Source: Microbacterium sp. (GTDB lineage: Bacteria; Actinomycetota; Actinomycetes; Actinomycetales; Microbacteriaceae). From it: a stretch of DNA of 64,000 bases. The notes beneath the pieces are model-generated. The model did not search any database. It saw only the letters and a list, made by a program, of their open reading frames with translations, and was not told the DNA's origin. Location: NCBI RefSeq assembly GCF_031179285.1, contig NZ_JAPSHY010000008.1, positions 69,959 to 133,958 on the forward strand, in the 5' to 3' direction. The position numbers and the translations under genes are program-made. Positions 49,325-55,379 of the stretch are shown in pieces. Each line of letters begins with the position of its first letter. Position 1 is the stretch's first letter.

Positions 49325-50551
49325 ATGACACCAACGCGCCACTTCGATCAGTCGTCGAAGCTCAAGAACGTCCTGTACGAGATCCGTGGAAACACGCTCG
49401 TCGAGGCGGCGCGGCTGGAGGCCGAGGGCCACAAGGTGCTCAAGCTCAACACCGGAAATCCGGCGATCTTCGGGTTCGAGGCCCCGCACCAGATCGTGCA
49501 CGACATGCTGGCGGCCCTCCCCACCGCCCACGGTTACAGCGACAGCAAGGGCATCATCTCGGCGCGCCGGGCCGTCGTCAGCCGCTACGAGCAGATCCCG
49601 GGCTTTCCTCGTATCGATCCCGATGACGTCTACCTCGGCAACGGCGTCTCGGAACTCATCACGATGACGATGCAGGCGCTGCTCGACGAGGGTGATGAGG
49701 TGCTCATCCCGGCCCCGGACTACCCGCTGTGGACCGCGATGACGAGCCTCGCGGGCGGCACGCCGGTGCACTACCTCTGCGACGAGGAAGACGGCTGGCA
49801 GCCCGACCTGGAAGACGTCCGCTCCAAGATCACGCCGAGGACCAAGGCGCTGGTCATCATCAACCCGAACAATCCCACCGGGGTCGTCTACTCACGCGAC
49901 GTGCTCGAAGGACTCGTGCAGATCGCGCGGGAGCACCAGTTGCTGCTGCTCTCGGATGAGATCTACGACCGCATCCTGTTCGATGACGCTGTTCACATCC
50001 CGACCGCCACCCTCGCGCCCGATCTGCTGTGTCTGACCTTCAACGGCCTCTCGAAGACGTACCGCGTCGCCGGGTACCGCTCCGGGTGGCTCGTCATCAG
50101 CGGCCCGCAGTCCCACGCGAAGGGATTCATCGAGGGGATCACGCTGCTCGCATCGACGCGGTTGTGCCCCAACGTGCCGTCGCAGCACGCCCTCCAGGCG
50201 GCGCTCTCCGGCGTGCAGTCCATCGACGCCCTGATCGCACCGACCGGCCGGCTCCACGAACAGCGAGACATCGCCTGGCAGGGTCTCGAGTCGATTCCCG
50301 GCGTCTCGTGCGTGAAGCCCGAGGGGGCGCTGTACGCCTTCCCGCGGCTCGACCCGAACGTCCATGAGATCAGGGACGATGCCAAGCTCGTCTTCGACCT
50401 GCTCGTCTCCGAGCACATCCTTCTCGTGCAGGGCACCGGATTCAACTGGCAGACTCCGGATCACCTCCGGATCGTGACCCTGCCGGAGGCACGTGTGCTC
50501 AGCGAGGCGATCGAGCGACTCGGAAACTTTCTCGCCAGCTACCGCCAGTAG
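49325..50551 (+). CDS. alaA: PLP-dependent alanine transaminase (AlaA/AlaT type)
   Basis: VLYEIRG, LKLNTGNP, GNGVSELI, INPNNPTG, SDEIYD, NGLSKTYRVAGYRSGW. Confidence 0.9.
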   Translation: MTPTRHFDQSSKLKNVLYEIRGNTLVEAARLEAEGHKVLKLNTGNPAIFGFEAPHQIVHDMLAALPTAHGYSDSKGIISARRAVVSRYEQIPGFPRIDPDDVYLGNGVSELITMTMQALLDEGDEVLIPAPDYPLWTAMTSLAGGTPVHYLCDEEDGWQPDLEDVRSKITPRTKALVIINPNNPTGVVYSRDVLEGLVQIAREHQLLLLSDEIYDRILFDDAVHIPTATLAPDLLCLTFNGLSKTYRVAGYRSGWLVISGPQSHAKGFIEGITLLASTRLCPNVPSQHALQAALSGVQSIDALIAPTGRLHEQRDIAWQGLESIPGVSCVKPEGALYAFPRLDPNVHEIRDDAKLVFDLLVSEHILLVQGTGFNWQTPDHLRIVTLPEARVLSEAIERLGNFLASYRQ

Positions 50552-51770
50552 CCGGCGTCTTCCTCCTCGGTGCGGTCGCAGCACCTGCGGCCGACGAATC
50601 CCCCGACGGAGCTGCCGGTGTGAGAGCTCCGGCGAGCCGGCGCACGGCTGCCACGAGCGGCGAGCGAGGGGTCACATCGGTCATCGGTCTCGCGTGCAGG
50701 AGCGCGGCGTCGGCCGCACGAAGGTCGTACGGCAGGAACGTCACGTCGGTGATACCCGCGAAACGATCGAGCGTGCGGCGGATCTGACCGCGAGCGTCGA
50801 TCCCGAGCGGTCCCTGACGCACCTGATTGACGACGACCGCGATGGGAGACGGTCCGATCAGGTCGCGAAGCTCGGCATGGTCGCGAAGGAACCTGCTGAT
50901 CCCGAGCGGGTCGGCAGCGGCGACGGCGACGACCAGGTCCGCCTCGCGAAGCGCGGCCGTGGTCGCGGCGTGACGGCGCGGACCCACGAGGTCGAATGTC
51001 GTCTCATCGTCCGCGTCGAGCGCCGCTCCGATATCGACGACGATCTCCTGGGCCCACTGCCGGCAGACCTGGAGCGCGGTGCGCAGGCGAGGGGCGGAGA
51101 GTTCCGGCCAGCGGCTGGGGCGGTTGATGCCGGCCAGAACATCGACGGAGCCGGCGCTCGTCTCGACAGTCGCGGCCAGCCGATCGAGTTCGGCGGAATC
51201 CAGACCGCCGAGCTCGGCGCGCCGGCACGCGGCGGCGATGCCGGGGGCATCGTCGCTCAATCCGAGGAGGAGGGCCAGAGCCGGTGCCACCGTGTCGGCG
51301 TCGACGAGAGCCGTACGACGGCCGCTGCGGGCCAGTTCGACGGCGAGCTGGATGGCGACGGTGGAGCGACCGGGCGCGCCCTGCGGCCCCCACACCGCGA
51401 TGACACGGCTTGCCGGCTCCGGCACCCTGCGCGCTGTGGCGGGGGAGTCCGCCTGAATCGCGGCCGCCACCTGCCACCCCGCGGCGTCCGCCGGGAGCGC
51501 GGCCGTCAATCCGTAGCGGCCGAGAAGACGGCTGTCGCCGTCGCCCAGGGGAATGATGCGCACGCCGCCTCGGTCGCAGGCGGCGATGAGTTCGGCGGTG
51601 AGGATGGTCCGGGCGGCCGGCGCGATGAGCGTGGCGGCGCCCGCGAGGTGAGGCAAGATCGGCGCAGACGGAGCGACGATCGTGATGCCGTCGATGCCCT
51701 CGAGCTCCAGCTCCGCGGCGAGACTGCTGGCGCGCGGCTCCGGGATGGTGATCACGACGTCGCCGTTCAT
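50499..51770 (-). CDS. CpaE/MinD-ParA-like P-loop protein with a deviant Walker A
   Basis: IAVWGPQGAPGRST, LVDADT, VVDIG, VVVNQVR; degenerate receiver-like N-terminus. Confidence 0.78.
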   Translation of the reverse strand: MNGDVVITIPEPRASSLAAELELEGIDGITIVAPSAPILPHLAGAATLIAPAARTILTAELIAACDRGGVRIIPLGDGDSRLLGRYGLTAALPADAAGWQVAAAIQADSPATARRVPEPASRVIAVWGPQGAPGRSTVAIQLAVELARSGRRTALVDADTVAPALALLLGLSDDAPGIAAACRRAELGGLDSAELDRLAATVETSAGSVDVLAGINRPSRWPELSAPRLRTALQVCRQWAQEIVVDIGAALDADDETTFDLVGPRRHAATTAALREADLVVAVAAADPLGISRFLRDHAELRDLIGPSPIAVVVNQVRQGPLGIDARGQIRRTLDRFAGITDVTFLPYDLRAADAALLHARPMTDVTPRSPLVAAVRRLAGALTPAAPSGDSSAAGAATAPRRKTPATGGSWRESFRVARSPR

Positions 51771-52387
51771 GAGCTCGCGCCGATCGGAACAAGCGACAGC
51801 GCCGAGCCCCCGGTGACGGCTGCCAGCACATCCGCGACGTCCGATCGATCGATCACCACCTCGACGCCGGTGCCCTCGGTGGCGAGCATCCCCTCCGACT
51901 CGATGACCGATGAGACGGCGGCGTCAGCGACGAGGATCCGCGGCGCGTCATGGGAGCGCCCGTCGGGGAGCAGCGGCGCGTGCCAGAGTTCGACGATCGT
52001 GCCGGGACCGACACCGGCCGGGATGCCGGTGCTGCTTTGGATCACGATCGTCGTCGTCCGTCCGCTGTCCGCCTCGGCGGCTGCCGCCGCTGGTACCAGC
52101 TCTCCCTCGGTGAGGGTTCTCGCGGCGATCTGGCCCGATTCCAGATCCTGCGGCGCGAGGTAGTCCGACGAGGCCGCGCCCAAGCTCACCTCCACCACCT
52201 GGAAGTCCGCCGACACCAGCGTCTCGCCCTGCACGATGGTGCGGTTGGCCTGCAGCACCGGCGTGGTGCGTCCGGCGGACGAGACGACCAGCCACACCCC
52301 GGCGATCGAGAGCGCCACCAGCGCGATACCGATCAGGAAGCGCACGTCACCCCAGAAGGCGCGCCGCGGTCGTGGGTTCGTCGTCAT
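51767..52387 (-). CDS. SAF-domain / CpaB-like membrane-anchored protein
   Basis: D.RFLIGIALVALSIAG, A.RTI..GE.L...D...V.V.LG, RTLTEGELVP. Confidence 0.78.
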   Translation of the reverse strand: MTTNPRPRRAFWGDVRFLIGIALVALSIAGVWLVVSSAGRTTPVLQANRTIVQGETLVSADFQVVEVSLGAASSDYLAPQDLESGQIAARTLTEGELVPAAAAAEADSGRTTTIVIQSSTGIPAGVGPGTIVELWHAPLLPDGRSHDAPRILVADAAVSSVIESEGMLATEGTGVEVVIDRSDVADVLAAVTGGSALSLVPIGASS

Positions 52388-52418
52388 GCAGACATGGTCA
52401 CAGAAACGCGCGGATCAC

Positions 52419-52435
52419 CGCCCGACTTATCCACA
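52419..52435. promoter_or_regulatory. DnaA-box-containing motif, copy 1
   Basis: CGCCCGAC-TTATCCACA; box at 52427-52435, 40 nt from the SAF gene start. Confidence 0.7.
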
Positions 52436-52486
52436 GGGCCCTCGCCAAGGAGGGTTTCCGGTGTCGGCGGGGGAGAGAATGGTGAC

Positions 52487-52762
52487 ATGCCCGATTCGCC
52501 CGTATCCGCCCCTCGCTTCCTCGCGCCTGCCCAGGTCGCCGAGTTGCTGAGCATCGATGTCGACGAGGTGATCGCGCTCGTGATGGAGGGGCGGCTCAGA
52601 GGGTCCCAGCTCGGGTCTCCGGCGCGCTGGCGGGTCGAGGAGTCGAGCCTGTCGGAGTACCTCGCCGAGCAGTCGGAGCATTCGAGGCGGATGGCGCTGT
52701 GGCGCCAGGCCAACGAGGCGAGTTTCCCCGAGGTCTGGGGTACTTCCACTCACGGCAGCTGA
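52487..52762 (+). CDS. Small excisionase/BldC-like HTH protein
   Basis: RFLAPAQVAELLSI...V..LV..G.L.G.QLG....WRV. Confidence 0.82.
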   Translation: MPDSPVSAPRFLAPAQVAELLSIDVDEVIALVMEGRLRGSQLGSPARWRVEESSLSEYLAEQSEHSRRMALWRQANEASFPEVWGTSTHGS

Positions 52763-53358
52763 GCGTCACCCGACGTCCGGATCCAGAGGATCGCGGTGAA
52801 CGGGATGATGCGGAATCCGCGCACGGCCCCTGCTCGCCGAGGCTCTCCGGCATCGTGTTCGGCCAGGTCGAGGTGATCGGCGCCTGCACGATCGACGGTA
52901 CCGTGGACGTCTCCGCCATCGCGCAGAGCGATGCGCAGCGGCACCCGACGGCGGGCCATGTCGCGCAGCACGAAGCCCAGGCTCATCCGCTCTCGCAGCT
53001 CCGGAGCCGTCTGCGCGTGCGCATCCAGACTGGCCAGCAGCACCCCATGATCGGTCGACACGCCCCGGATCATCGCAAGCGGGATCACCGACACGGCGGA
53101 TCGAGCGCCTCCGCCGGGCGCGGACTCGGCCGCGAGCCAGTCGGATCCGAGTGCGCGCAGTCTCACGGAGAGGCGCTGGGTGCCGGCGAGTTCGAGGATC
53201 ACCGGAGCGTCGAGGCTGCACAGCGTCCGCAACCGGGTGCGCAGCTCGAGCCGAGAGATGCGCAGCCGCTCGGACTCGGCATCGAGCGACGCGCGTTCGG
53301 CCTCCCATTCGGAGGCGAGCTGACCCTCGAGGTCCTCGAACAATCTGTCCCACTGCAC
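52750..53358 (-). CDS. Conserved actinobacterial hypothetical protein (WDRLFEDLEGQ family)
   Basis: MQWDRLFEDLEGQL, L.A.GSDW, GTVDRAGADHLDLA..D.GE.RR; TACGCT -10 lies 7 nt upstream. Confidence 0.8.
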   Translation of the reverse strand: MQWDRLFEDLEGQLASEWEAERASLDAESERLRISRLELRTRLRTLCSLDAPVILELAGTQRLSVRLRALGSDWLAAESAPGGGARSAVSVIPLAMIRGVSTDHGVLLASLDAHAQTAPELRERMSLGFVLRDMARRRVPLRIALRDGGDVHGTVDRAGADHLDLAEHDAGEPRRAGAVRGFRIIPFTAILWIRTSGDAQLP

Positions 53359-53389
53359 GCGACCGAGCGTAGGGGAGCGGCGCGTGCGA

Positions 53390-53406
53390 CGTCCGAGTTA
53401 TCCACA
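53390..53406. promoter_or_regulatory. DnaA-box-containing motif, copy 2
   Basis: CGTCCGAG-TTATCCACA; box at 53398-53406, 40 nt from the 53358 gene start. Confidence 0.7.
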
Positions 53407-53483
53407 ATTCGGCGGCGGGGTCTTCACCTTCGGCGCTCGGCGTGCTGTACTTCTCGCAGTTGCCGAGACCGAGAGCGCCACCG

Positions 53484-53870
53484 ATGATGTTGAACGAGTA
53501 CTTCGCACCGCAGCCGACGCCGTCGTCCGAGTTGCCGGAGCCCACGCCGCTGCTGCGCAGCCTCACGCAGGGGGTGCTCGAAGTCCTCGCCGGCGTGCGC
53601 GAGGTCGATCAGCTCGCCAGGTGGTTCAGCGAGGACGCCTTCCGGAGCCTGGTGACACGCGCGAACCTCTCGGCGCGAGCCCGTAGCGCCCGCGGCGTCG
53701 TCCCGGCCCGCCCGACCTTCGAGATCCTCTCCATCCGCTGCTCCGCCCCGGCAGACAGCGTCGTCGAGTCCGTGGTCGTGGTCGCGGGCCCCGGGCGCAC
53801 GCGTGCCGTCGCCATCCGCATCGAGGGCCTGGACCGCAGATGGCGCGCGACATCGCTGGCCATCCTCTGA
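53484..53870 (+). CDS. Rv3235 family (DUF6459) protein; start uncertain
   Basis: LEVLAGVREVDQLARW, RTRAVAIRIEG..RRWRAT. Confidence 0.85.
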   Translation: MMLNEYFAPQPTPSSELPEPTPLLRSLTQGVLEVLAGVREVDQLARWFSEDAFRSLVTRANLSARARSARGVVPARPTFEILSIRCSAPADSVVESVVVVAGPGRTRAVAIRIEGLDRRWRATSLAIL

Positions 53871-53894: not shown

Positions 53895-55379
53895 GTGCCA
53901 ACCCTCAGTGATCTCGCCCAGGCTCAGGGCTGCCTGACCGACGACGACGTCGAATGGCTTCACCGCCTCGCCGGAGACGGCCAGCTTCTCGCCGACCTCG
54001 CGTCAGCCGACATCGTCGTGTGGATCCGAACAGACGACGGCTCATTCGTGGCCGTGGCCCACGCCCGCCCGAGCGGAGCCGCGACGCTGTTCTACCGCGA
54101 CATCGTCGGTGAGCGGGTCAGGCCGCAATGGCGCACGCAGGTGCACGGCGCGTATGAGTCCGGCGAGATCGTCGACTCGTCGTCGCCGGACTGGTTCGAG
54201 GAGACGCCGACGAGGGTGCGTGCGGTTCCGATCGTCAGCGAGCGCAGCAACGGCGAGACGTCGGCCGCTGTCATCGGTGTCGTCACCCGGCACACCAATC
54301 TCGGCGAGGCACGCACGCCGTCGCGGCAGCAGATCACGTTCGAGGAGTGCGCGAACGATCTGTTCCGCATGATCGCCGACGGCAGCTTCCCCGACCTCGC
54401 CGCCCCCACGTCTCCCCGTCGAGGCGCGCCTCGAGCATCGGACGGTCTGATCAGGATCGACGTGGACGGAATCACGACGTTCGCCAGTCCGAACGCGCTG
54501 TCCGCCTTCAACCGGATGGGTTTCGACGACGAGCTCGAAGGAGAGTCGCTCGCCGAGGTCACCACGCGTCTCGTTCCGCCGTCCCGGCAGGTCGATGAGT
54601 CTCTGCCCGTCGTCGTCACCGGCCGCGCCCCCTGGCGCACCGACATCGAGGCGCGGGGAGTGACCGTCTCGCTGCGCGCCATCCCGCTGAAGGATCGCGG
54701 GAATCGGATCGGCGCGATTCTGCTGTGCCGTGATGTCTCGGAACTGCGACACCAGGAGCAGGAGCTCATCACCAAGGATGCGACGATCCGCGAGATCCAC
54801 CACCGGGTGAAGAACAACCTGCAGACGGTGGCCTCGCTGCTGCGGATCCAGGCGCGACGCACCCACTCCGAAGAGGCGCGCGATGCGCTCACCCAGGCGA
54901 TGCGGCGGGTCGACGCGATCGCCGTCGTGCACGACACGCTCGCGCAGGGGCTGACGCAGAAGGTCGATTTCGACGAGGTCTTCCAGCGCGCGCTCAAGCT
55001 CGTCGCCGAGGTCGCATCCGCACCGAACACGCGCGCCCGCGTGCGATCGAGCGGCAAGTTCGGCGTCCTGCCGAGCGAATACGCCACCCCTCTCGCCCTC
55101 GCGCTCACCGAGGTCGTGACCAACGCGGTGGAGCACGGGCTCGCCGGGCAGGAGGGCTCGGTGACGGTCGATGCCGTCCGCACCGAGGAGAACCTCCGCG
55201 TGACGGTGAGTGACACCGGACACGGCTTGCCCGAGGGGCGCATCGGTCAGGGCTTGGGCACCCAGATCATCCGCACCCTGATCCAGGGTGAGCTCGGCGG
55301 GACGATCGACTGGCAGGGCGACGAGGGCGAAGGCACCACGGTGACCATCGACATCCCGCTGCGCTGGCTGACCAAGTGA
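53895..55379 (+). CDS. pdtaS: Soluble sensor kinase PdtaS (GAF-PAS-HisKA_2)
   Basis: QLLADLASAD, SDGLIR, IREIHHRVKNNLQTVASLLR, NAVEHGL, GLGTQI. Confidence 0.93.
   Translation: MPTLSDLAQAQGCLTDDDVEWLHRLAGDGQLLADLASADIVVWIRTDDGSFVAVAHARPSGAATLFYRDIVGERVRPQWRTQVHGAYESGEIVDSSSPDWFEETPTRVRAVPIVSERSNGETSAAVIGVVTRHTNLGEARTPSRQQITFEECANDLFRMIADGSFPDLAAPTSPRRGAPRASDGLIRIDVDGITTFASPNALSAFNRMGFDDELEGESLAEVTTRLVPPSRQVDESLPVVVTGRAPWRTDIEARGVTVSLRAIPLKDRGNRIGAILLCRDVSELRHQEQELITKDATIREIHHRVKNNLQTVASLLRIQARRTHSEEARDALTQAMRRVDAIAVVHDTLAQGLTQKVDFDEVFQRALKLVAEVASAPNTRARVRSSGKFGVLPSEYATPLALALTEVVTNAVEHGLAGQEGSVTVDAVRTEENLRVTVSDTGHGLPEGRIGQGLGTQIIRTLIQGELGGTIDWQGDEGEGTTVTIDIPLRWLTK

Follow-up and report, generated by a model that had tools for sequence, protein, structure and literature searches.

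A DnaA-box 9-mer at fixed promoter positions marks a predicted Tad-pilus and competence regulon in Microbacterium and other Actinobacteria

Introduction

Transformation of Micrococcus luteus depends on Flp/Tad pili (PMC4322843), and nearly all of the de-repressed comEA/EC-promoter mutants obtained in an ethyl methanesulfonate screen were altered in a single 550-bp region (PMC8467076). This hotspot comprises Mlut_14660, which encodes an HTH_17 protein (alleles S27L, S46F, and R64W; the gene was not deletable), together with its 5′ untranslated region (UTR) and Shine-Dalgarno (SD) sequence, and Mlut_14650, which encodes a SAF-domain protein and whose deletion lowers transformation 10^4-fold (PMC8467076). 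The authors propose that the HTH_17 protein binds com promoters, and, according to their Fig. 5, the placement of HTH_17 beside SAF/TadZ is conserved across Actinobacteria (PMC8467076). M. luteus papers of 2021 and 2026 state that the regulatory cascade of competence is unknown and that HTH_17 binding to com promoters is untested. Here, we describe a DnaA-box 9-mer that occupies the same promoter position upstream of two genes in a 64,000-nucleotide stretch of a Microbacterium sp. genome (GCF_031179285.1, contig NZ_JAPSHY010000008.1, positions 69,959 to 133,958 of the forward strand; hereafter the window), and that recurs upstream of pilus and DNA-uptake genes in related bacteria. The M. luteus papers (PMC8467076, PMC4322843) make no mention of such a box, and a search of the literature on DnaA boxes in combination with tad genes, Actinobacteria, or leaderless promoters found no description of the element or of a regulon of this kind.

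The closest described elements are the DnaA-box operators of Escherichia coli dnaA and nrdAB, Bacillus subtilis dnaA and sda, Caulobacter gcrA, ftsZ, and podJ, and the mycobacterial rpmH-dnaA, dnaB, and Rv0010c-11c regions. The element described here shares with them a perfect R1/R4-type 9-mer, the source genome uses one variant of it at oriC, the dnaA promoter (PdnaA), and dnaB, and its weak sites follow TTWTNCACA. It differs in being a single box at a rigid position (-48 to -40 or, flipped, -61 to -53) in leaderless promoters that lack a -35 element, in preceding Tad-pilus and DNA-uptake genes rather than replication or nucleotide genes, and in that binding by DnaA is putative. The CRP-S/Sxy (TfoX) regulons of Gammaproteobacteria are a second parallel, with a fixed-position site for a general DNA-binding protein and the possible involvement of a small accessory factor, but both the protein families and the site are different, and an accessory role for HTH_17 would be hypothetical and genetically negative. 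BldC of Streptomyces, a MerR/Xis-like developmental regulator, falls into the same Pfam domain family as the HTH_17 neighbor of the box, and is likewise small, lacks a ligand domain, and binds asymmetric repeats; its sites, however, are AT-rich direct repeats and not DnaA boxes.

To the question of competence control in Actinobacteria, we can now contribute a phylum-wide positioned cis-element, the list of its genes, and two candidate readers. Should DnaA be the one that reads the box, the initiator would gain a new physiological output, and replication and competence would be directly linked in the phylum that contains Bifidobacterium, whose Tad pili drive gut colonization, and Mycobacterium.

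Results and Discussion

Two DnaA Boxes at the Same Promoter Position

The 9-mer TTATCCACA is present in exact form on the plus strand of the window at 52427-52435 (box A) and 53398-53406 (box B), both times in a divergent intergenic spacer, and the window search found no additional box near either site when one mismatch was allowed. Read on the strand of the genes that follow, both boxes are TGTGGATAA, the minus-strand start codons (ATG 52387 and GTG 53358) are 40 nt from the 9-mers and 48 nt from the first base of the boxes, and the 17-mers around the two boxes are identical at 15 of 17 positions. The first-pass annotation of the window, made from its sequence alone, had reported both copies with their coordinates, the 15/17 identity, and the 40-nt distances, all of which were correct on recheck. 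It had estimated fewer than 0.1 chance copies per window; in 100 dinucleotide shuffles we obtained a mean of 0.02 exact copies, and no shuffle contained two or more. The features of the promoters are as follows.

52427..52435, minus strand: box A, a perfect DnaA-box 9-mer, TGTGGATAA at -48 to -40 of the SAF/TadZ operon
52427..52435, plus strand: box A in its plus-strand reading, TTATCCACA at -60 to -52 of the HTH_17 gene
52394..52399, minus strand: -10 of the SAF/TadZ promoter, GACCAT, 6 nt before the ATG, with the preceding TGT making it an extended -10
50499..52387, minus strand: SAF-TadZ operon (Pfam/NCBIfam), leaderless start predicted at 52387
51767-52387, minus strand: gene for a SAF-domain CpaB/RcpC-like protein (Pfam/NCBIfam)
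50499-51770, minus strand: gene for a TadZ/CpaE/Ssd-like ParA ATPase (Pfam/NCBIfam)
52475..52480, plus strand: -10 of the HTH_17 promoter, GAGAAT, separated by 39 nt from TTATCCACA upstream and by 6 nt from ATG 52487 downstream
52487..52762, plus strand: gene for an HTH_17 (excisionase-family) small DNA-binding protein (PF12728, TIGR01764)
53398..53406, minus strand: box B, a perfect DnaA-box 9-mer at -48 to -40 of the gene for a 202-amino-acid protein
53366..53371, minus strand: -10 of the 202-amino-acid gene, TACGCT, 7 nt before GTG 53358; the consensus TACNCT is conserved
52750..53358, minus strand: 202-amino-acid gene, no Pfam family, 'MRWDNLFDDLESQL' family

In the whole source genome (3.59 Mb, 68% GC), 11 exact copies of TTATCCACA were found, compared with ∼4.7 expected from base composition, and 10 of these are at meaningful places, the single remaining copy looking random. 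Five copies flank dnaA: two are upstream of the gene, and three, together with one near-box, are in oriC, the spacer between dnaA and dnaN. One copy, accompanied by two near-boxes, is upstream of dnaB. At each of the other four, a start codon follows at exactly +48, with a hexamer 6-7 nt before it; the genes are those for the SAF protein, the 202-amino-acid protein, a lipoprotein (contig C1), and, on contig C34, the N-terminus of TadA/CpaF. Outside oriC and the dnaA promoter, therefore, a start codon is found at exactly +48 for four of six exact boxes, and one of the six is the dnaB copy. The same architecture, but with a one-mismatch box, is found upstream of a hemolysin-III/TrhA-family gene and of the gene for a small membrane protein. 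The arrangement is real and highly non-random, and chance is excluded as its origin.

The three DnaA-type boxes upstream of dnaB (contig C11:6012-6154) read TCATCCACA, TTATGCACA, and TTATCCACA. In M. tuberculosis and M. smegmatis, dnaB is likewise preceded by a region reported to be bound by DnaA (PMC7738170), which the three boxes mirror.

Conservation of Box Position and Promoter Architecture

Box A is invariant, and the spacer between it and the ATG is gapless, in 20 of 20 aligned Microbacterium loci. An exact box with a start at 48/49 was present in 19 of 23 same-genus loci for the SAF gene and in 13 of 23 for the 202-amino-acid gene, the box of the latter being degenerate in others; together with the TACNCT hexamer it is kept in most of 20 Microbacterium genomes. 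Upstream of tadA, 59 of 80 named Microbacterium loci carry the exact box at 48 and six more carry it at 47/49, and several of the remaining loci are truncated contigs. The pattern TGTGGATAA-N39-RTG gave ∼70 matches in 24 Microbacterium genomes versus one for the reversed control (three in total for the control across all 41 genomes searched), and was present in 52 of 80 Microbacteriaceae genera as well as in other actinobacterial families. When all species genomes were scanned with TGTGGATAAC-N26-NANNNT-N6-RTG, the matches listed included many in high-GC Actinobacteria that were followed by long open reading frames (ORFs) of the same families (Salinibacterium, Glaciihabitans, Aquiluna, Arthrobacter, Pseudarthrobacter, Sinomonas, Kribbella, Marmoricola, Aeromicrobium, Intrasporangium, Frankiaceae, Nocardioidaceae, Mycobacterium spp., and Streptomyces, the last with a UvrD-like helicase), and those listed from low-GC genomes had no ORFs behind them.

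We compiled a sequence logo from 41 sites that belong to different genes and genera. An A at -11 and a T at -7, for neither of which the sites had been selected, were each present in 37 of the 41 sites; if the first base of the start codon is also the first to be transcribed, these are the two key -10 positions. The logo contained no -35 signal, and the conserved flanks of the box were limited to cTGTGGATAACt. The distance from the box to the -10 and to the start codon is constant to ±1 nt in hundreds of promoters. Within the window, the hexamers at 52394-99, 53366-71, and 52475-80 are each 6-7 nt before a start, and leaderless starts, with the transcription start site (TSS) at the start codon, appear well supported by such sequence criteria. 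Most of the promoter description in the first-pass annotation is in line with these results: the -10-like hexamers GACCAT and TACGCT 6-7 nt before the starts and the lack of a good -35, the fixed spacing, which it had suggested checking in the genome and its relatives, and a positionally conserved regulon with its box at -48 to -40 of leaderless promoters, which spacing and logo support as a prediction. Its longer 17-bp motif had to be given up, since the eight flanking bases, apart from cTGTGGATAACt, are not conserved across relatives in either the alignments or the logo.

The logo also bears on whether the 9-mer might be one half of a class II CRP/GlxR site (TGTGA-N6-TCACA near -41.5), or the -10 element of a sigma-28/WhiG promoter (GCCGATAA). 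TGTGG resembles a CRP half-site, the center of the 16-bp site would be near -41, and several of the promoters have an extended -10, as do class II promoters; for sigma-28, GGATAA resembles CGATAA. However, the 41 sites have no conserved second half-site, with positions -39 to -33 carrying little information beyond C-T-t, and the invariant ATAA core is not a feature of CRP sites. Nor is there a TAAA -35 element 15-16 nt upstream of GCCGATAA, or any conservation 5′ of the box, and the A(-11)/T(-7) signal 27 nt downstream is independent of both proposals. We reject the CRP-type dimer site and the sigma-28 -10 on the strength of the logo, and consider either one hardly credible.

The SAF promoters of families f8 and f13 retain the box, the 27-nt spacing, and the hexamer, but their box is TGTGGACAA and a 5′ UTR follows. 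Name-based retrieval of relatives of the SAF protein from genome G031 returned five loci only and was uninformative. At one locus of that genome (L128; G031:C5:760153), TGTGGACAA is followed after 27 nt by TACGGT and then by a five-codon ORF, ATGAGGACCCCACGATGA, with a stop codon that overlaps the ATG of the actual gene. The five codons may form a leaderless mini-ORF to which the downstream gene is coupled.

Boxes Precede Genes of the Tad Pilus

To define the gene list, we clustered the proteins encoded at 52 box-preceded loci from 22 genomes (17 genera). The families were TadA/CpaF; SAF/CpaB-like proteins followed by TadZ/CpaE/Ssd; A24 prepilin peptidases; Flp-type pilins of 57-59 amino acids; a lipoprotein family with 15 members; the 202-amino-acid family (five fetched loci and the window gene); a family of ∼320 amino acids with a C-terminal DUF559/MTES_1575 restriction-endonuclease-like domain; and a family of ∼300 amino acids that includes mycobacterial Rv3661-like proteins. 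DUF222/HNH-type proteins and one GIY-YIG protein were also found, and with the DUF559 proteins these indicate that the regulon holds several nuclease-fold proteins. The predicted regulon is, in this part, the Tad/Flp pilus system and associated genes. The DUF559/MTES_1575 family is among the commonest of the box-preceded genes, and often occurs several times per genome (e.g., loci L136, L146, L150, L151, L164, L165, L168, L299, and L308).

In the source genome, tadA is followed by tadB, tadC, flp, and tadE, and by TadA the closest named relative is M. aurantiacum (92%). In the region C34:186096-198842, the tadA gene of this strain is split after ∼codon 83 by an insert of ∼11.5 kb that ends with a gene for a large serine recombinase of 544 amino acids (C34:196253-197887, minus strand); the C-terminal two-thirds of tadA resume at C34:197871, and the tadB-tadC-flp-tadE genes behind it are intact. 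The insert may represent a mobile element that has integrated, or an intervening element that can be excised from a competence/pilus gene.

A Second Geometry at Competence Promoters

Box A is common to two divergent promoters that are both predicted to be leaderless, with starts 100 bp apart, and it serves them in different orientations. Toward HTH_17, the promoter reads TTATCCACA, 39 nt, GAGAAT, 6 nt, and ATG 52487. The same flipped arrangement, with 39-40 nt between box and -10, was seen at the comEA and yraN promoters and at the SAF and tad-1 promoters of M. luteus, and the sites in this orientation fit TTNTNCACA.

For comEA, 16 Microbacterium promoters were anchored on a conserved leaderless -10, TAGCGT. 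TCCAC was at -58 in 11 of the 16 loci as part of (T/G)TGTCCAC(G/C), in the orientation opposite to that of the Tad-gene boxes. At the yraN-comM-dprA promoters, matches to TT.T.CAC. peaked at -62 to -60 (36 of 74 promoters), with none from -59 to -20. The comEA and yraN sites are weaker than those of the Tad genes, and are visible only in multi-genome alignments that are anchored on the -10. As the same cis-element is found before pilus genes and before comEA and yraN-comM-dprA, membership of both groups in one regulon for the Tad pilus and DNA uptake is predicted, and the Tad, comEA, yraN-comM-dprA, and HTH_17 sites together make up what we term a candidate Tad/competence regulon. The first-pass annotation had linked uncharacterized genes to replication or the cell cycle; the genes turn out to be those of the Tad/Flp pilus together with comEA and yraN-comM-dprA, and the replication part of its claim is left as a suggestion from the identity of the box and its co-variation with oriC. 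Relaxed boxes also accumulate at -71, -88/-89, and -98 of the yraN promoters in subsets of the genomes (loci L217-L296), which points to another upstream site in the yraN-comM-dprA promoter.

The two geometries bear on a possible role of the boxes as DnaA-titrating or replication-control sites, similar to datA/DARS or to the B. subtilis clusters, which would be intergenic by chance and regulate no neighboring gene. The boxes are perfect and of the high-affinity type, and E. coli and B. subtilis are known to have DnaA reservoirs outside oriC (PMC4447404). Titration, however, has no need of register or of orientation-specific geometries, yet in hundreds of promoters, whose genes are functionally related, the distance to the -10 and start varies by no more than ±1 nt, and each site has a single box instead of a cluster. 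We therefore regard this role as very improbable.

The Counterpart of the Locus in M. luteus

The locus in the window shares synteny with "cluster 13" of M. luteus, in which HTH_17 is divergent from SAF-CpaE and a PAS kinase is nearby. The SAF-TadZ operon is the counterpart of Mlut_14650/Mlut_14640, and the HTH_17 protein is 39% identical to Mlut_14660 over 69 amino acids. Coordinates of M. luteus NCTC 2665 in PMC8467076 equal the values used here + 91, as verified on the S27 and S46 codons. The pattern TGTGNAWAA has only one match in the NCTC 2665 genome, and that match is in the HTH_17/SAF spacer. There, the SAF operon promoter reads TTTTCCACA-39 nt-TACCCT and the HTH_17 promoter TGTGGAAAA-26 nt-TTGAAT, so that the divergent TSSs are predicted ∼98 bp apart, versus 97 bp by rapid amplification of cDNA 5′ ends (PMC8467076). 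Two perfect, inverted TTGTCCACA boxes are present in the tad-1 promoter, and 39 nt separate one of the two from TATCTT.

The two loci share the gene set, the divergent layout, one box between TSSs ∼100 bp apart, and boxes at tad genes. In M. luteus, however, the geometries are swapped, with HTH_17 in the -48 geometry and SAF in the -61 geometry, the transcripts have 5′ UTRs, and the box variants are TTTTCCACA and TTGTCCACA. Unlike M. luteus, moreover, Microbacterium is not known as transformable, and the tadA gene of the source strain is interrupted.

The regions upstream of yraN (L420, 1000290-1000320) and tad-2 (L422, ∼1968245-1968270) in M. luteus share the 12-mer CTCCTGCACAGG inside near-identical stretches of ∼23 nt (GTCCACTCCTGCACAGGCGTCCGG at yraN and GTCCGCTCCTGCACAGGCGCCGG at tad-2), with the box-like core TCCTGCACA. 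No -10 could be assigned near the 12-mer at either gene, and the stretch from 1.347 to 1.367 Mb contained no comEA.

Candidate Readers of the Box

With CRP and sigma-28 set aside, two candidate readers are left, DnaA and the HTH_17 protein encoded beside box A, and these are exactly the two named in the first-pass annotation. Several lines of evidence favor DnaA. First, the perfect consensus: the window boxes match the 9-mer exactly and are of the variant used at the strain's own oriC and dnaA promoter, as expected of high-affinity DnaA boxes, and box and flanks equal those of the five TTATCCACA copies in the oriC/PdnaA region. Second, the variant co-varies with oriC, being TTATCCACA at both oriC and the regulon in Microbacterium and Arthrobacter, and TTGTCCACA at both in M. 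luteus and in genomes G025 and G031. Third, the weaker sites of the reverse geometry degenerate at positions 3 and 5, as TT-N-T-N-CAC-A, which matches the relaxed consensus known for DnaA boxes, TTWTNCACA. Fourth, boxes are also found upstream of dnaB, where DnaA binds in mycobacteria (PMC7738170). Fifth, a domain search of the source genome found a single gene with DnaA domain IV, which eliminates a second DnaA-like protein as the reader. We also considered co-variation of the DnaA protein itself (H to Y in the recognition helix and R to Q in the basic loop of Microbacterium), and dropped it because Arthrobacter retains the H and also uses TTATCCACA. RNA-seq of M. tuberculosis dnaA variants provides a weak hint, with log2 fold changes of 0.35 for Rv3660c (adjusted P 0.017) and 0.53 for Rv3659c (adjusted P 0.044) (PMC7738170 supplements).

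In the reading toward which we lean, a conserved Tad-pilus/competence regulon of Actinobacteria would have one operator upstream of each promoter, the 9-mer, which would be read by DnaA, with HTH_17 acting against it. The promoters would be leaderless, lack a -35 element, and carry the box in one of two fixed geometries. In the first, TGTGGATAA is 26-27 nt from the -10, at -48 to -40, as at SAF-TadZ, the 202-amino-acid gene, tadA-B-C-flp, and the prepilin peptidase, flp, lipoprotein, and DUF559/REase-like genes; in the second, the flipped TTNTNCACA is 39-40 nt from the -10, at about -61 to -53, as at HTH_17, comEA, and yraN-comM-dprA. DnaA would bind as a monomer through domain IV and aid RNA polymerase at these -35-less promoters, and expression of the pilus and DNA-uptake genes would follow the amount or availability of DnaA. 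As in M. luteus, where the alleles and the SD mutation suggest that it acts negatively, HTH_17 would exert negative control over these promoters, and it might compete for the box or act beside it. DnaA is favored as the activator and HTH_17 as the antagonist because -44 or -57 is a typical activator position, and the box is thus presumed to activate rather than repress.

Several observations weigh against this reading. In E. coli and B. subtilis, it is common for a single DnaA box to be unoccupied in vivo, and many actinobacterial promoters work without a -35 element, so that an activator is not strictly needed. In the source genome, neither comEA nor yraN has a box at up to one mismatch, and the comEA, yraN, and dprA boxes are degenerate there; recA and ssb, like the region directly upstream of dprA, have none. 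The variant at the M. luteus HTH_17/SAF spacer is TTTTCCACA, although oriC of that organism uses TTGTCCACA. DNA affinity purification (IDAP-seq) and chromatin immunoprecipitation with mycobacterial DnaA yielded five regions only, none at a tad-like locus (PMC7738170), and in M. luteus it is alteration of HTH_17, not of DnaA, that changes comEA/EC expression (PMC8467076). All considered, the chances that DnaA is the reader are roughly even.

Alternatively, the box could be the operator of the small HTH_17 (excisionase/BldC-like) protein, with DnaA uninvolved and the likeness to a DnaA box due to convergence or mimicry. As a monomer, or as a multimer arranged head to tail, HTH_17 would then bind the asymmetric 9-mer and repress or gate the Tad/com promoters and its own gene. 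Xis-type proteins are generally known to bind asymmetric sites, and the box in the HTH_17 gene's own promoter would provide autoregulation. The window protein is the syntenic counterpart of Mlut_14660, the de-repressed M. luteus mutants carry S27L, S46F, R64W, or 5′ UTR/SD changes, and, per the figure cited above, the gene is conserved beside SAF/TadZ across Actinobacteria (PMC8467076). This explanation leaves unaccounted for, however, the perfect DnaA consensus, the tracking of each lineage's oriC boxes by the variant, and the degeneracy along TTNTNCACA; a simple repressor would not usually bind upstream of the core promoter at -44 or -57, and binding of HTH_17 to the box is itself putative. 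We regard it as a possible but less likely alternative.

A stronger version of the DnaA reading, which we think rather unlikely, would make DnaA the positive master regulator of competence and Tad pili across Actinobacteria through one high-affinity box at -44 or -57 of leaderless promoters, with the possibly essential HTH_17 (Mlut_14660 family) as a dedicated antagonist that competes for the boxes, perhaps at oriC too. If this were true, DNA uptake would be directly coupled to the cell's potential to initiate replication.

The 202-Amino-Acid Protein and Neighboring Genes

The protein encoded behind box B has no Pfam or NCBIfam family in profile searches, and orthologs with the box in front are found in at least six other genera. 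Its AlphaFold model (predicted local distance difference test score 85) consists of a long N-terminal helix followed by two tandem Sm/Hfq-like small barrels. When the model was compared with the PDB by Foldseek, the top 50 matches were all Hfq, with E ∼1e-3 and template-modeling scores to target of 0.7-0.85; Hfq is generally considered to be lacking in Actinobacteria. Two further genes lie on the other side of box B.

53442..53870, plus strand: DUF6459 gene (domain search), divergent from the 202-amino-acid gene
53895..55379, plus strand: gene for a PdtaS-type PAS/GAF histidine kinase, given for context only; its M. luteus homolog is at 1603098-1604564 in the neighborhood of cluster 13 (PMC8467076)

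In the Microbacterium genomes, an 11-mer at 53441-53451, 35 nt from box B, is sharply conserved between unconserved flanks. Its minus-strand reading is AGTAGAGCACA and its plus-strand reading GTGCT(C/G)TACT. The 11-mer overlaps the annotated GTG of the DUF6459 ORF and sits at what would be the -10 position of the reverse geometry, without the A at position 2 of the hexamer.

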